Of a stretch of DNA of 64,000 bases, positions 4,558-41,057 are shown piece after piece; the stretch's first letter is position 1, and every line of letters begins with the position of its first letter. This DNA comes from Dictyostelium discoideum. Its lineage: Eukaryota. Below the pieces are notes generated by a model. That model saw only the letters and a program-made list of their open reading frames with translations. It made no database searches and was not told the origin of the DNA. The DNA lies in assembly GCA_000004695.1 (NCBI GenBank), contig CM000152.2:6293300-6357299 (forward strand), in the 5' to 3' direction. The position numbers and the translations under genes are program-made.

Positions 4558-7500
4558 ATGAATGGATGGGGAGAAAGTGACGAGATAGAAGATTTTGACC
4601 CAGAAGCAGATTTAAAACAACAACCATCACAAAAACATCAACAACAACAACAACAACAACAACAACAAAAATCATCAACAACAACAACAACCACTACAAC
4701 AACTAAAATGAATGGTCATAATAATAATAATAATGGTGGTGGTGGTGGACATAAAAGACAACTTTCATTCAATCAATTAATGGATTCTATTTCAGGTACA
4801 TTACCATTTCAATTAGATATGAATAATGGTACTAGTAATAGTAGTAGCAGTAATAGTAATAATAATAATAATAATAATAGAACCAATACACCAATTAATA
4901 GAATATTTAGTAGTACAAATAGTTTAGAAGAATTACAAAATGGTATGATGATGAATGGTGGTGGTGGACAATCAACACCACCAATAATAAATAATAATAA
5001 TAATAATATAAATGGTCTCAAACAATCACAAGATTATGGTGAAACATTAAAAGAGATGATTAAAACAATTGAAAATTATAAGAAAGAAAACTTTGATTTA
5101 AAGATGCGTATATTTTATATGGATAGTAGTTTATCGATGACTAGTGAAGAAAAAAATATGTTTCAACAAAATATTGATTTAAAAGTTCAATTGGATGAAA
5201 AAACCAAACAATTGGAAGAGAGGGATAATGTAATTGTAAAATTGGATAAAGTGAATCAAGTTTTAAAAGAGAAATTAGAAAAACAAAAACAAAAAGAAGA
5301 GAAATTAAAAAATGAAATTGATCAATTATCAAATATAATTTCAAATCAAAATGATAAAGATAAAGATAAAGATAAGAAAAATAAAGATAACCAATCATCA
5401 TCATCATTACAACAACAACCACAACTACCACAACAACAACAAGTTGTAATTCAATATACAAAAGATCCAGAAGATAAAGATAAAATCATTCAACAACATA
5501 ATATAATTGAAGAATTAAATCATAAAATTGATGGATATGATGATGAGATTAAAGATTTGAAGAATCAAATTTTAAACGCAAATCAAGAATTAAAGAATCA
5601 AAAAAAGAATAATGAAAGATCACAAAAACAATTGGAGGATTCGTTAAGGGAGCAAAGAGCTATTGAACAAGAGATATTGGATAAGAATCAGGAATTACAA
5701 TCGATAAATTTAGAATTAAAGCATAGATTGGATAGATTGAATAATGAATTGGGTGAACAGAATCAATTGGATTCTCAAGAGATTGAACAATTGGAAAAGG
5801 ATTTAAAATCTACTAGATTGAAATTGGAGCAATTGAAAGGTCATTATGAACGTTTGAAACAGCATTATGAGGAATTAAAGAAACATTATGATGAACAGTT
5901 GGACACCATTGAGCAGTTAAAAAACTCGATTTTAGCTTACGAGAATTTACTAATTGAAAAGGATCATGAGATTCAATGCATCTTTGAACAACATCAACAA
6001 GAACTAATACAAATTCAAAACGATCATCAAAAGGCACTTGCTAATAAGGTTGGTGAGATCACAGAATTGCGTTCACAAATCAAGAGAATTCGTGAAGAAT
6101 TCTATGCATCCTCATTGGAAACTCAGCATAGTCAAGCGATTCACGAAAATTATAAACAAGAGATACAAACACTCTCTATGGATATTTCTAAATTGCATCA
6201 ATCCAATCAGGATTTAGAGTTACAATTACATTCTAAAACTATTTTAATCAATGATTATGAGAGAGCGTTGAGTAATTTAGAGAATACTCATAAGGAGTTG
6301 GTTGATGATGTTCAAAAGAAATTACATGAATTTACAATTCAAGCTGATCAACATCAAAAGGAGAAAGATGATTATCGTTTAATTGCATCGGAATTGGTTG
6401 TTGTTAAAAATCAATTAAAAGAATTAAGAGTGGATTATCAAAAATTGGAACAATTAAAACAACAACAATCCGATCAACAACAACAACAATTGATTGACCA
6501 AAAACAATACCAACAACAACAATTTGAACAACAAAAACAAAAATCTGATCAAGAGAATCAACAAAAGTTAATTACTATACAAAAACAAACCTCAAAACAA
6601 TTATTAGATCAAGAAACACTATATAAACAACAATTGGATAAATTGGAGGATACTTATCTATCGAAATTGAATAATCAAAATTCAAATAATCATCAAAAAA
6701 CTGAAACTTTTATTAAAGAGATGAAAGAGAATTATCAACAACTTCATCAAAAGAATATTTTAAATTTCTCAACAACTTTGATAACTATATTATCAACTAT
6801 TTCAAATACATTAATACCTTCAGTTTTGGCTAATCAACAACAACAGCAATTGCTATTCGATGAGAAGGAAGATCTACAAAATTATATTAAAAAATTAAAT
6901 AATAATATCAATGATTCAACAATAACTGATCTTCAAGAATTAATTTCATTAAAGATTGAAGAATGTAAACAATTGAATCAACGTGAATTTGATAATGGTC
7001 TTGTTAAAATTGAGAATGATTTCAATCAACGTTATCAACAATTATCAATACTATTGGATGAGAAATCAATGTTATTGGATCAATTGGAGACACAATTGGT
7101 CGAGGCTAAACAATTGACAACTCAAAATCAATTGATTGGTCAAGAACAACTTCAACAACAATATCAACAACATTTACAAACTTTTAAACTTCAAATTCAA
7201 CAACTTCAAGATCAACTCATTCAAAATAGAAGACAATATCAACAATCATTTGATGATCAAGTTAAACAACTCTCTCAATTTAATCTTGAAAATAAACATT
7301 TAGATCAATCAAATAAACAATTACAACAAAAGTTACAACAACAAATTACAATTTTAAATCAACAACATCAAATGGAATTACAACAACAATATCAACAATA
7401 TCAAAGAGAAATTTATCAAATTCAACAACAATTTAAAAATTTAAATAAATTAAATAATAATAATTCAACTACTACAACAACAACAACTTCATCATCATCC

Positions 7501-7994
7501 TCATCATCATCGTCATCAAATAATATTAATAATAATATTATTAATAATTCAATTGGTAATAAAAGAACACATGAAGATTTACAAACTGTATCAATATCAG
7601 ATTTTGATGATGATAGAAATACTAAACTTGTTAAAAAAGAGAATCCAAAAGAAATTAAAGAGATTAAAGATAAAGATTGGGTAAAGAATACTATTGATAA
7701 TTTATTAAAATTAGATAAAGAGACTAAAGAATTAAAAGATCATATTAAAAAGATTGATGATGATATTAAAACAAAGAAAACTTCACTTCCACCAAAATCA
7801 ACTTTGGCAAATGATCAAAAACAATTATTTCCACCACAACCAAAAGAACCAAGACCATCTCAAATCTCTTCATCTTTAATAACTTTAAATCCTGATATCA
7901 TTAAAAATCAAGTGAATTCTTTAGCTCAAATTTTACAATCTTCAACAATTGGTGATAAATATGAAATTTCTCATGATGTAAGTTTTTCCCCAAG

Positions 7995-8037
<43 letters not shown>

Positions 8038-8297
8038 ATACTAATTGGTTAAAATTTTTAAATTTTTAGTTTTTAGTTAATATTAATGAACTTTTTAAAG
8101 AATTACGTTTACATAATCAATTATTATCTTATGAGTTTGATTCAAGAAATAATAAATACAAATCTTTAATAAATGATATAAAAGAAAAAAAACTTAAATC
8201 AAGTAAATCTTCTTCCTCCTCTTCAGCAACAACAACAACAGCAACAACAAACACATCAAGTAGAGCTATTAAACCAACTGCAAAACCAAATGAAAAC

Positions 8298-36646: not shown

Positions 36647-37180
36647 TATTTTCTACCATAAAATAGCAATTCCTAAATAAAAAAAATAAATAAATAAAAA
36701 AACTTAACTTTTTAAGTTAAAAAAAAAACATTCAAGTTGTGTTTAAAAAAAAAAAAAAAAAAAAAATATTTAACCTCAACCAAAAATAATAATAATAATA
36801 ACCAAATACAAAAATTCTAAATAACTTCTCAAACTAAAATAAAAAAATAATAATAACCAACAAAATAATAAATAAATTTGTATATATATATATTTTATTT
36901 TATTTTGTTTTATTTTTTTTTATTTAAAAAATTAAATATCCCACAATAACCAGTTTTCATATTTAATTATTTTAATTTTTTTTTAATAATCTTTTATTTC
37001 TTTTTATTTTTTTTTTTATCATTTTCTATTATTATTTTTCATCTGCCACTCTTTTCATTTTTAACAAAATTTCAGAAAATTTTCCAATATCCTTTATCAA
37101 TAGACAAGTTTTAAAATATTTCCCAAGAATTTAAAATTTATTATTATTTTTTTTTTTTTTTTTTAATTTATAGGATTAAA

Positions 37181-37525
37181 ATGGAAGAAAAAAAAGAAAT
37201 CGTTTATATCTATGAACAATCCACTGGAATCCTTTATGATGGAGAAGGACATGAAATTTGTAGAGGATATTCTGGTAAAGGTGAACACAAGAATCAACCA
37301 AGTTCTGAGGGTTTAGAAAATTATGGTCCAATACCCAGAGGTACATATTTATTGAAAAAACCCAAAGGTAAGGTAGTGATTGATTTAATACCACTCCAAA
37401 AACTTATAAATGGTAGACATTCATTCCAAATTCATGGAGACAGTATAGAAAATCCAGGTACTGCATCCCAAGGTTGTATTATACTAGGAAAAGATGTTAG
37501 ATTGAAAATTTCTGAACAACCTTAA
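37181..37525 (+). CDS. L,D-transpeptidase-fold Tlde1/DUF2778-like domain protein (114 aa) of bacterial type.
   Basis: 'CRGYSGKGEHKNQPSSEGLENYGPIPRGTYLL' matches the DUF2778 N-terminal block (..G.G...NNP.......GPIP.G.Y.I). 'FQIHGDSIENPGTASQGCIILGKDVR' matches the L,D-transpeptidase catalytic signature H-x(n)-(S/T)-x-G-C-(I/V). Single exon. Confidence 0.65.
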   Translation: MEEKKEIVYIYEQSTGILYDGEGHEICRGYSGKGEHKNQPSSEGLENYGPIPRGTYLLKKPKGKVVIDLIPLQKLINGRHSFQIHGDSIENPGTASQGCIILGKDVRLKISEQP

Positions 37526-38288
37526 ACTAAAAAGTTAATTGTTGTTTACTTTTATAAACCAAATAACATAACAACAGATAGCACCCTTCCAACTCCATCA
37601 CCAATTTCAACTCCACATCCAACCTCTATTCCACATCCATTCTTTTTTCCTTCACCAATCTTAACTCCACCTTCAACCTCAACTCCATCATCAACCACAA
37701 CTGCATCATCAACTTCAACTCCATCATCAACCTCAACCCCCTCATCAACCTCAAGTCTAAAGAATTTCAAATATGCATCATTACTTAAACAACAATCTAA
37801 TAACTTAACAACATCGTCACATGACTATACACAACCACAAACAAAACAAATTCCAACTTCAAATCCCACCTATTACCCTGAACTACCATTTGCATTAAAA
37901 TCACCAGAACAACAAATGTTAGATATTGAATTAATGAAGTATAAATCTTTTTCTCCTAAACCACCATTGAATATGAATAATATAACACCATCGTCATCGT
38001 TGTCATCATCGACTTTTATTAAAACAGAATTACAAAGTAAACCAAATTTAAGTTCATATTATTCTTCCCCCCTCTTCTTCTTCTTTGTCTTCTTTTTCTT
38101 CTTTTTCCTCTTCTTCTTCTGATATCAATAGTATAAGATATTCAAAATATTTTCAAACATCCAATTCATCCTTAGAGAATGTATCCTGTGGTTCATCTTT
38201 TAAAAGTTTTGATACCAGAACTCCAAATCTCTCTCTATTTAGTGATCCTAAAAATTCCTCCATTGGTTTCTCTTATAAATTTGGTTAA
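37526..38288 (+). pseudogene. S/T/P-rich frame with no internal stop that continues in the same frame past the TAA of the Tlde1-like ORF, then shifts frame at a C6 run. It is a decayed or mis-assembled C-terminal extension, or a separate low-complexity gene.
   Basis: The frame of 37181 is open from 37526 to 38121 ('TPSPISTPHPTSIPHP...STSTPSSTSTPSS...'). Removing one C from 'TCTTCCCCCCTCTTC' (about 38070) joins it to the Ser-rich frame ending at 38288. The opposite strand is also open across the C/A-rich part, so the coding call is weak. Confidence 0.3.
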
Positions 38289-38385
38289 TAATTTTTTCAT
38301 CCATCATTTTAGTAGTCCCAGGTAAAAAAAATGTCAAAAAATAAAACCTTCAGAATTAATTCATTCTATTGCAAAGTAGAAAAAT

Positions 38386-38537: not shown

Positions 38538-39398
38538 TTAATTAATTAATTTTGGTTCAATTTTAACATAAATTAATTTTGAAGGCTCAGATTTTATTGG
38601 TCTTTTTAAATGGGTAATTAATATTTTTGTATGTTGTGGATTAAATTTATCAAATGATAATTCTTTAATGATTAAAGTTTGATCAGATAATAATGAAGCT
38701 TTAAGTTTACTATTTTCCACACCAATATATTCAATTGTAACTTCTGAATTATAGCTATAAAATATTAATGTTGAATTATTTACAAAATCTGATGGATTTA
38801 AATCAATGATTTTTGAGATTTTATTATTCTCATCTTCATCATCATCAATATCATCAATATCATCAAATGAAATTACTTCTACCTTATGATTGATTTCACT
38901 ATCTTTACTAATTACACTAAAATCATAAGTTTCTTCAACTTCATTTAATTGAGAAGTTGCTATCAATGGTTGTTGAAAACAAATTGGTGAATTTGGTGAA
39001 ACTGAACAATTATTATCAATGAAATTATTTTTAACTGCTAATAGTGGTTGTTGTTGTTGTTGTTTATCATTATTTTCATTTGGTAAGAATACTGAATCAG
39101 TTTCATAACCACCATTAAAATTATAAGGTTTAAAATAATCTAAATCAATTGATTCATTTGGTTTTTGTCTATGGAATAATGATAATCTATTTCCTTTTAA
39201 AATTAATAAACTTCTATTGTAACCATCAAATGTTGAAAATGGTCCTGCTGTACCAACTACTGCACGACTAATACGATAAGTGAATGAATCATTTAATGTA
39301 CTTCCAATTGGTTCAATATGAATTTGTGTTGATTTACCTTTTCCATTTCTCCAAACCATATGATCATAATCACATTTTTCTTTAATTTTCCAATACAT
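38538..39398 (-). CDS. HutD/Ves-family cupin protein (PF05962-like) of bacterial type, intronless.
   Basis: 'MVWRNGKGKSTQIHIEP' matches the Ves 'NLWRNAAGETREI' block. 'TYRISRAVVGTAGPFSTFDGYNRSLLILKGN' matches the Ves '[30 protein letters not shown]' block. Confidence 0.7.
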   Translation of the reverse strand: MYWKIKEKCDYDHMVWRNGKGKSTQIHIEPIGSTLNDSFTYRISRAVVGTAGPFSTFDGYNRSLLILKGNRLSLFHRQKPNESIDLDYFKPYNFNGGYETDSVFLPNENNDKQQQQQPLLAVKNNFIDNNCSVSPNSPICFQQPLIATSQLNEVEETYDFSVISKDSEINHKVEVISFDDIDDIDDDEDENNKISKIIDLNPSDFVNNSTLIFYSYNSEVTIEYIGVENSKLKASLLSDQTLIIKELSFDKFNPQHTKILITHLKRPIKSEPSKLIYVKIEPKLIN

Positions 39399-39761: not shown

Positions 39762-41057
39762 ATGAATTCAATTCAATTTCCAACACATGAAAAAATTATT
39801 GAAGCAGTTGATAAATTACAAAATGAAGCAATTGAAAAATTAAAACAAATGGTATCATTCGATTCTGTATTAGGTAATGAAAGAGATGTTCAATTATATG
39901 TTGAAGAAGTTTTCAAATCATTAGATTTAAAGGTTGATAGATTTGAAATTGATTTAGAAAAGATTAAACATTTACCAGGTTTTTCACCAGTCAATTGGTC
40001 TTATAAAGGAAAAGAGAATGTAATTGGTATTCATGAACCAGCACCAACTCAACATGCATCAAAACCAGAATCAGAGAGAAAATCATTAATTTTCAATGGT
40101 CATGTTGATGTTGTACCAACAGGAAGAGATGCACTTTGGACTCAAAATCCATTCTCACCATATGTTAAGGATGGTCGTCTCTATGGTAGAGGTAGTGGTG
40201 ATATGAAAGCAGGTATCATTGCATTTATCATTGCCTATAAGGCAATTAAAGAATTGGGTTTTACTCCAGCCGCAAAAGTATTACTTCAAACTGTAGTCGA
40301 AGAGGAATGCACTGGTAATGGAACATTGGCTTGTTTAGAGAGAGGTTACCGTGCTGATGCTGCCATCATTCCTGAACCATTTCCAGAGATTATCACTGCT
40401 CAAGTTGGTTTAGTTTGGTGTAAAGTTAATGTACGTGGTAAACCAGCACACACATTGGAGATGAGTAAAGGTATTAATGCAATCGATGGTGCTATGTATC
40501 TTGTTGGTGAACTTAGAAAATTAGAGGCTGAATGGAACACTGTAAAACATGAAGCATTCTCTGACAAGTTTGACCATCCATTAAATTTCAATCTTGGTAT
40601 GATCAGTGGTGGTGAATGGACCTCTTCAGTACCATGTGAATGTTCATTTGATCTTCGTGCAGGTTTTTATCCAGGTACACCATTGGAAAAAGTTCGTAAA
40701 ACAATCATTGATACTATTGACCGTGCCGCTAAAGAAAAGAATTTACCATACACAATCGAATGGAATGGTTTCCAAGCTGAAGGTGTCACTCATAGTGCCT
40801 CTGGTGATATGATGAAACAATTGGGCGCCACTTATAAATCTGCACTTGGTACTGATGCCATTTATTCACCTGTACTTTGTACCACCGATAGTAGATTCTT
40901 TGAACTTTATTATAATATTCCTGCAACTTGTCTTGGTCCAGAATCAAAAGCAATTCACGGTATTGATGAAAGTGTCTCATTAGAAAGTTTAAGAGATATT
41001 ACAAGAGTTTTAGCTTGTTTTATTTCTGATTGGTGTGGTCTTCAACCACTTCATTAA
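39762..41057 (+). CDS. M20-family metallopeptidase (ArgE/DapE/acetylornithine-deacetylase-like), 431 aa, intronless.
   Basis: Metal-binding and catalytic motifs are present: 'LIFNGHVDVVP', 'GRGSGDMKAG', 'VVEEECTGNG' and a C-terminal 'HG.DE' block. The gene is GC-richer than the flanking genes. Confidence 0.85.
   Translation: MNSIQFPTHEKIIEAVDKLQNEAIEKLKQMVSFDSVLGNERDVQLYVEEVFKSLDLKVDRFEIDLEKIKHLPGFSPVNWSYKGKENVIGIHEPAPTQHASKPESERKSLIFNGHVDVVPTGRDALWTQNPFSPYVKDGRLYGRGSGDMKAGIIAFIIAYKAIKELGFTPAAKVLLQTVVEEECTGNGTLACLERGYRADAAIIPEPFPEIITAQVGLVWCKVNVRGKPAHTLEMSKGINAIDGAMYLVGELRKLEAEWNTVKHEAFSDKFDHPLNFNLGMISGGEWTSSVPCECSFDLRAGFYPGTPLEKVRKTIIDTIDRAAKEKNLPYTIEWNGFQAEGVTHSASGDMMKQLGATYKSALGTDAIYSPVLCTTDSRFFELYYNIPATCLGPESKAIHGIDESVSLESLRDITRVLACFISDWCGLQPLH

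Follow-up and report, generated by a model that had tools for sequence, protein, structure and literature searches.

What does a peptidoglycan-editing domain known from a toxic effector of the bacterial type VI secretion system (T6SS) do in an amoeba, and in what form does the amoeba carry it? The question is raised by an open reading frame (ORF) of 114 codons, running from ATG to TAA at 37181..37525 on the forward strand of a 64-kb window (the whole stretch of DNA analysed here), which belongs to the 6.43-Mb AX4-type chromosome 3 of Dictyostelium discoideum and codes for a domain of the Tlde1 family. A reading made earlier from the letters alone (the sequence-only reading) had described it as a stand-alone eukaryotic copy of a T6SS effector-type domain, Tlde1/DUF2778, with an intact catalytic motif. 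The explanation that we favour, and hold to be probable, is that the ORF is the 5' part of a Tlde1-family gene acquired horizontally in the D. discoideum complex, that the intact protein is an L,D-peptidase, and that the AX4 copy has been disabled.

The identity of the domain is supported by profile, motif, and fold. The ORF and both peptide blocks quoted in the sequence-only reading are present verbatim, and the 114-residue product matches the Pfam profile PF10908 (Tlde1_dom) with an E-value of 1.7e-13 and 51.5 bits, against a gathering cut-off of 30.1 bits, which bears out the assignment of a Tlde1/DUF2778 domain to a eukaryotic locus; the intact allele of a wild strain (L004, described below) scores 46.8 bits against the same profile, a weak secondary match of the 114-residue protein is to DUF5675, and NCBIfam gave no match for it. 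The catalytic residues had also been read correctly as intact. Specifically, His85, the catalytic histidine of the H...SxGC motif (codon at 37433..37435, inside a stretch that is profile-aligned to the L,D-transpeptidase 4lpq), and Ser96, Gly98, and the catalytic Cys99 of the SxGC motif (codons for Ser96-Gln97-Gly98-Cys99 at 37466..37477) show no variation, nor does Ile100, in any of the alignments, which comprise 8 to 123 homologues, and the catalytic residues are retained in every amoeba allele. In Tlde1a of Salmonella Typhimurium, the His and the Cys of the H...(S/T)xGC motif are essential to toxicity (bioRxiv 10.1101/2020.02.18.954545; PMC9638812), and by motif position His85 would be the counterpart of Tlde1a H121 (PMC9638812). 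The AlphaFold model of the 114 residues, built on the 123-homologue alignment, has a mean predicted local distance difference test (pLDDT) score of 90; its best structural match is Tlde1a, with 97 of the 114 residues aligned and the domain about 45 residues shorter than Tlde1a, whose active-site cleft lies under a capping subdomain, while the matches obtained in the PDB by Foldseek and by plain sequence search are marginal only. As modelled, the fold is that of an L,D-transpeptidase (YkuD-like), with Tlde1a closest, and neither of the results that the sequence-only reading had named as refuting its domain call, a missing profile match or a Cys/His pair out of register with the L,D-transpeptidase active site, was seen.

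Where that reading failed is in taking the 114 residues for a stand-alone version of the domain. The AX4 ORF is a nonsense-truncated allele (GAA to TAA) and not the native form: it lacks the terminal beta-strand, and the intact gene of L004 codes for 393 residues, comprising the domain and a tail. The TAA at codon 115 (37523..37525) replaces a sense codon of three related genomes, which is GAA for Glu in L001 as well as in L004 and GTA for Val in L006, and it is positioned just past the last helix and ahead of the conserved terminal beta-strand, leaving the N-terminal ~90% of the Tlde1-family (YkuD-like L,D-peptidase) domain. The remainder of the domain follows in frame past the stop (TKKLIVVYFY, 37526..37555), with the strand LIVV at about 37535-37546 aligned to the "..LEVV" C-terminus of the bacterial homologues. 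Within this lost segment, L117 and V119 are at least 90% conserved in 122 homologues, and the model of a full-length bacterial homologue (P0004, pLDDT 97) places a terminal beta-strand at 116-119, after the last helix. Moreover, the frame past the TAA stays open for ~195 further codons, which is very unusual in DNA this AT-rich (GC of 14-35% across 2-kb segments of the window). A Ser/Thr/Pro-rich tail (37556..38122), orthologous in L004 and L006, occupies the frame of the domain and is open up to a TGA at 38120-38122 that was created by a second lesion, a +1 insertion in a C-run (38067..38073) relative to L001, L004, and L006. This frameshift puts the conserved 3' end of the ancestral ORF (38074..38288, …DINSIRYSKYFQ…GFSYKFG, terminated by the TAA at 38286-38288) into the +1 frame, where it still matches the C-terminus of the L004 ORF; an ORF at 38085..38288 falls within this out-of-frame 3' end.

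The stop is also found in a second chromosome-level D. discoideum assembly (L078, GCA_054883475.1), which over 3.1 kb departs from the window only by a poly-A run of different length, and therefore the stop is not a one-off read error. An intron removing the TAA was considered and rejected, since no GT...AG pair in frame takes out the stop, the sole GT upstream of it (37496) being joined to the nearest AG out of frame, and since in L004 and L006 it is this region that codes for the conserved domain end. A gene model annotated in L078 (4015-5213 on the reverse strand, equivalent to 37181-38379 of the window) starts at the same ATG and spans 1,199 bases for a product of only 300 residues; introns must hence have been assumed, which apparently bridge both the stop and the frameshift, and the model is probably an annotation artefact. 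Exact look-ups in a collection of 15 billion proteins found neither the 114-residue ORF, nor a 68-residue ORF at 37916, nor the 393-residue ORF of L004. Judged from these lesions, the AX4 allele is most likely null or gives a crippled or unstable product; the lost core strand, which is conserved, the second frameshift, and the independent lesions of sister strains all indicate relaxed constraint in the lineage, and the gene copy in the window is probably dead.

The history of the gene is read from the orthologous loci, which were taken from other Dictyostelium genomes by way of the neighbouring genes. L004, the wild D. discoideum strain of GCA_054859355.1, has an uninterrupted ORF of 393 codons, in which the Tlde1 domain is followed by a tail of ~270 residues that is 26% Ser, 14% Pro, and 12% Thr and terminates with ...GFSYKFG. 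In L006 (D. cf. discoideum), the domain is intact and the tail is present for the most part, with a frameshift in its final portion, and the C-terminal beta-strand that is absent in AX4 is present in both L004 and L006; a 531-residue gene model of L006 (4196-6540) appears to merge the orthologue of the adjacent DDB_G0282875 with the Tlde1 gene. L001, a read-set assembly that is 98% identical to AX4, retains the sense codon at position 115 and has a 2-bp insertion five codons on and a 1-bp deletion near 37916. L005 (D. discoideum GCA_054859385.1) has undergone a deletion of ~1.17 kb, equivalent to about 36920-38090 of the window, that takes away the domain together with the promoter region and the greater part of the tail; it lies at about 7182-7195 of that locus, the last ~70 codons of the gene are retained, and a 269-residue gene model (7012-8241) is probably the DDB_G0282875 orthologue fused to the remnant of the Tlde1 gene. 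In D. citrinum (L002) and D. firmibasis (L003), the interval flanked by these neighbouring genes contains no trace of the Tlde1 gene. The AX4-type gene is most likely being lost in part of the species.

The gene was genuinely acquired by horizontal transfer, from bacteria or from their phages, and resides in the nuclear genome of the amoeba, as follows from the amoeba genes on either side and from its host-like codon composition. Exact look-up of three flanking ORFs returned the D. discoideum AX4 proteins DDB_G0282875, DDB_G0282879 (HutD-like), and DDB_G0282881 (peptidase M20); the GC content at third codon positions (GC3) of the Tlde1 domain is 0.16, compared with 0.07-0.17 in the neighbouring genes, and the intergenic DNA on both sides has 13-14% GC. 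The locus is syntenic in four further Dictyostelium assemblies or read sets, at species-level divergence. After the transfer, the domain evolved under purifying selection: in three pairwise comparisons among AX4, L004, and L006, the ratio of nonsynonymous to synonymous substitution rates (dN/dS) of the domain is 0.20-0.42 in all three pairs, with a synonymous excess that is significant in a binomial test (P 0.0014-0.011). The neighbouring M20 gene is more constrained (dN/dS 0.04-0.10), and the tail, with 0.37-0.79, is looser than the domain. Within the tail, a 21-residue motif, ELMKYKSFSPKPPLNMNNITP (37928..37990), is identical in AX4, L004, and L006 with only synonymous differences at the DNA level, and therefore the tail is coding; no homologues of it were found in the homologue search, and it is a disordered, Ser/Thr/Pro-rich segment with this one conserved short motif. 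It is, by these features, a real, once-functional amoeba gene.

The origin of the domain is indicated by its relatives, of which a profile search returned 4,452 and an exhaustive phmmer search 1,433 cluster representatives. Nearly all the best-scoring ones are single-domain proteins of ~120 residues that, like the amoeba domain, start with M-x-W-x-YEQSTG and end with LEVV. Their bacterial hosts, in 69 loci from species-representative genomes, are mostly soil Acidobacteriota, Paraburkholderia and its relatives, and Enterobacterales. Downstream, many proteobacterial copies overlap an ORF of 112-177 residues whose product carries a signal peptide, and those of Enterobacterales have an Hcp gene (PF05638) immediately upstream; with the overlapping signal-peptide ORF, this corresponds to the T6SS effector-immunity arrangement in its classical form. 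A T6SS context is missing from the acidobacterial loci, where the neighbours are housekeeping genes (transglutaminase, PolX, lactonase), and therefore not all members of the family are T6SS cargo. At 14 loci of Acidobacteriota (among L008-L021, L067, and L075), the Tlde1 gene is followed after ~100 bp by the gene of a conserved protein of ~203 residues with no Pfam match; a hydrophobic segment comes after the Pro/Ala-rich N-terminus of this protein, which could be an immunity protein or simply syntenic.

The family is also carried by phages, specifically by those of 58 GenBank records, almost all of which are Erwinia or Dickeya jumbo phages, and by 153 IMG/VR contigs. P0042, among the best-scoring cluster representatives, sits on its contig beside a tail-fibre gene. 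Phage copies lie at 8001-8366 of L076, at 4001-4366 of L077, and in L079-L158, and the phage role of this ~120-residue family is unannotated. The amoeba protein matches phrog_24118 with an E-value of 2.6e-28 and 99.6 bits (residues 9-111 against positions 2-110 of the 121 in the profile), and among the 150 fetched loci that matched in tblastn the top 18 scores are all viral, with a small margin over the bacterial copies (105 versus 94 bits). A neighbour-joining tree gave no supported sister group, the bootstrap value being below 25% for any. The domain stems from the single-domain branch of Tlde1/DUF2778, with proteins of ~120 residues, a donor family that is distributed among jumbo and other phages, soil Acidobacteriota and Paraburkholderia, and the Hcp cassettes of Enterobacterales. 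The label "T6SS effector-type" given by the sequence-only reading consequently stands for the enterobacterial relatives in their Hcp-effector-immunity cassettes and not for the best-scoring relatives, which are phage proteins, and it fits only part of the donor family. In the amoeba itself, the gene is not a T6SS effector module: the window contains no T6SS linkage, no Hcp homologue, and, as had been supposed, no immunity partner, a tblastn search of the window with seven downstream immunity-like proteins from bacterial loci having returned no homologue.

Another eukaryotic homologue with a Tlde1 domain is P0002 (EukProt "gene457-578_t", 227 residues), which has an N-terminal extension of 95 residues; its N-terminus, MGNKSSKG, resembles an N-myristoylation signal. 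P0002 is ~50-52% identical to phage copies and ~41% identical to the Dictyostelium protein, and it groups with the amoeba sequences in only 43 of 200 neighbour-joining bootstraps, so that there may have been one transfer or two. Among the more distant relatives, the Tlde1 domain occurs in tandem or in fusion with PG_binding_1, phage lysozyme, RHS repeats, or DUF5675 (P0140, P0141, P0143, P0148, P0160, P0166, P0177, P0195, and P0223), which is consistent with peptidoglycan as the target of the family. P0166 and the amoeba protein have a C-terminal helix "LGKDxRLKI" in common.

Several observations weigh against a disabled gene for an L,D-peptidase that served the amoeba. The second histidine of the SHGC motif of Tlde1a (H129), which positions D-Ala4 (PMC9638812), is replaced by Gln97 in the amoeba domain; since Gln or Glu occupies this position throughout the ~120-residue bacterial and phage subfamily, the replacement is not an amoeba-specific change. 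A hairpin is shortened by a deletion of six residues in the amoeba domain compared with its bacterial homologues. Signal peptides and transmembrane segments are absent from all alleles (the 19-residue Kyte-Doolittle maximum of the full-length allele is 0.5), as the sequence-only reading had noted for the signal peptide, so that the enzyme would have no evident route to peptidoglycan. AlphaFold still folds the 114-residue fragment confidently, a result that does not address stability, so that the loss of function in AX4 is what we infer. Lastly, a fully intact ORF is present in only one of the six genomes or assemblies of the D. discoideum complex that were examined, and the gene may be dispensable everywhere.

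The rival that survives best is that the gene is a neutral relic that was never of use to the amoeba, having entered the ancestor of the D. discoideum complex and decaying since then at lineage-specific rates. Its patchy distribution with three independent disabling events would be expected of such a relic, as would the missing secretion signal and the absence of the exact 114-residue sequence from the 15-billion-protein collection; however, the domain has a dN/dS significantly below 1 in all three pairs, the catalytic residues are kept in every allele, the codon composition is fully ameliorated, and the motif of the fused tail has been conserved through synonymous changes only, all of which therefore speaks for a period of function and makes a relic without any use unlikely.

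The 114-residue AX4 ORF could itself be functional as a minimal stand-alone Tlde1 enzyme, the downstream frame being unrelated or vestigial. Both the catalytic His and the catalytic Cys lie upstream of the stop, the model is confident, and the independent AX4 and L001 alleles are cut just past the catalytic core (at codons 115 and ~120), which could hint at selection uncoupling the domain from the tail. Yet the stop sits at a sense codon of three relatives and removes a segment that is highly conserved among the homologues and forms a beta-strand in the full-length model, AX4 and L001 each have a second downstream frameshift, as decay predicts, and a third strain (L005) has deleted the whole domain; we therefore regard a working 114-residue enzyme as quite improbable.

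It is a still fainter prospect that the protein was repurposed for a cytosolic substrate other than peptidoglycan, for example as a cysteine peptidase or transpeptidase acting on amoeba proteins or on other D-amino-acid molecules, with the tail used for targeting or for interactions. The lack of a signal peptide in the amoeba protein, the myristoylation-like MGNKSS start of P0002, the Gln in place of the second His of Tlde1a, and the conserved motif in a eukaryote-specific tail could all be accommodated by such a change; however, the Gln or Glu is common to the bacterial and phage proteins of the subfamily, which are found in fusion with peptidoglycan-binding or lysozyme domains or paired with periplasmic immunity-like proteins, and we know of no alternative substrate for the fold. 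Bacterial or phage contamination, or an assembly artefact, for which it might be said that the close homologues are all bacterial or viral save P0001, P0002, and the Dictyostelium loci L004 and L006, is refuted by synteny and composition, as the ORF sits among amoeba genes on a 6.4-Mb chromosome, has the GC3 of its host, and is syntenic in the four other assemblies or read sets.

Under the favoured reading of a horizontally acquired and later disabled L,D-peptidase gene, a single-domain Tlde1 gene of a bacterium or a phage entered the nuclear genome of the D. discoideum species complex, where the domain became the N-terminus of a protein of ~393 residues with a disordered tail. The intact protein is predicted to be a cysteine L,D-carboxypeptidase/transpeptidase that, like Tlde1a, would attack the bond between meso-diaminopimelic acid (mDAP3) and D-Ala4 of stem peptides. 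Specifically, Cys99, aided by His85, would be acylated by the mDAP3 carbonyl of a tetrapeptide stem with release of D-Ala4, and the acyl intermediate would then be hydrolysed or exchanged with a free D-amino acid, depleting the donors for cross-linking. The amoeba might employ such an activity against prey or intracellular bacteria, or on muropeptides, and it would not need an immunity protein, because amoebae have no peptidoglycan. Contact between enzyme and bacteria could be cytosolic, could depend on a non-classical delivery to the phagosome, or could be limited to released muropeptides. A more specific proposal, which we put forward only as a tentative and rather unlikely one, is that the intact alleles code for a cytosolic peptidoglycan-editing enzyme of phage or bacterial origin with an amoeba-specific disordered tail, acting on bacteria or muropeptides in the cytosol or the phagosome, and that the natural null alleles contribute to the known differences among strains in killing, tolerating, or carrying bacteria, such as Paraburkholderia symbionts.

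Comparison with known systems delimits what the gene resembles. Tlde1a (Tae5-STM, STM14_0336; PDB 7UMA; PMC9638812; bioRxiv 10.1101/2020.02.18.954545) is an L,D-carboxypeptidase/transpeptidase effector of the T6SS, with which the amoeba domain shares only ~20% identity over a shorter length (~125 versus 171 residues) and from which it differs by the Gln at the place of His129, by its location in a eukaryotic chromosome with neither T6SS nor immunity gene found in the window, by its ~270-residue tail, and by the truncation in AX4. The closest sequence relatives found, with 43-51% identity, are the ~121-residue proteins of phrog_24118 from Erwinia and Dickeya jumbo phages (e.g., gp193 of vB_EamM_Alexandra) and from many uncultured phages, which have the same length, the start M-x-W-x-YEQSTG, the end LxVV, and the variants GKGEHKN and FQIHGDS in common with the amoeba domain; unlike the amoeba copy, which is chromosomal and lies between amoeba genes, the phage proteins have no eukaryotic tail. 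The L,D-carboxypeptidases Csd6 and Pgp2 of Helicobacter and Campylobacter are housekeeping cell-shape enzymes with extra domains, and their identity to the amoeba domain is only 13-15%.

A different kind of precedent is offered by eukaryotes that have taken over bacterial toxins, and Chou and colleagues reportedly described domesticated amidase effectors (dae) in eukaryotes in 2015. The dae genes, derived from the T6SS tae genes and present in ticks and other eukaryotes (tick Dae2; bioRxiv 10.1101/2020.04.10.036376), and the NlpC/P60 hydrolases that Trichomonas vaginalis gained by lateral transfer (bioRxiv 10.1101/320382) resemble the amoeba gene in that a peptidoglycan-cleaving bacterial toxin resides in a bacteria-exposed eukaryote, the immunity partner having been lost and selection retained. 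The amoeba gene bears the dae-like features of stable chromosomal integration, host-like composition, and purifying selection, and it is disabled in AX4, L001, and L005; in contrast to both precedents, its product is YkuD-like rather than of the CHAP or NlpC/P60 type and has no signal peptide, and the gene is polymorphic within one species complex and disabled in the reference strain. Searches of the literature library at hand found no paper tying Tlde1 or DUF2778 to a Dictyostelium gene, none on a Tlde1-family L,D-peptidase as a captured immune or digestive factor in a eukaryote, and none on expression or antibacterial activity in the host; nor did they yield anything relevant on DDB_G0282877, which by accession numbering would be the AX4 gene model.

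Other features of the locus are of lesser import. An ORF of 72 codons on the reverse strand (37552-37770) is antisense to the Ser/Thr/Pro-rich tail and is most likely a by-product of its low-complexity composition. Both genes beside the Tlde1 ORF on its downstream side belong to typically bacterial families: DDB_G0282879, HutD-like (PF05962), at 38538-39398 on the reverse strand, and DDB_G0282881, the peptidase M20, at 39762-41057 on the forward strand. Both are conserved in D. citrinum and D. firmibasis, and they may be older horizontal acquisitions.

For annotation, the case is instructive in that the 114-residue sequence is absent from the 15-billion-protein collection, while one gene model of a newer assembly apparently uses introns to get across the stop; for a test of gene function, the reference strain is probably ill-suited. 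As a standard model in which phagocytosis, bacterial killing, and bacterial symbiosis are studied, D. discoideum provides a natural experiment here, since one examined wild strain has an intact gene for a putative peptidoglycan enzyme, the reference strain a probable null allele, and another strain a deletion. Eukaryotes exposed to bacteria have repeatedly captured bacterial cell-wall toxins as immune or digestive factors, as exemplified by tick Dae2 and Trichomonas NlpC/P60, and the gene described here adds a eukaryotic member, disabled in AX4, to a kind that was already known. If the tentative proposal of a cytosolic enzyme with segregating null alleles were true, it would be the first domesticated Tlde1-family effector in a eukaryote and, at the same time, an immunity polymorphism segregating in a model organism.

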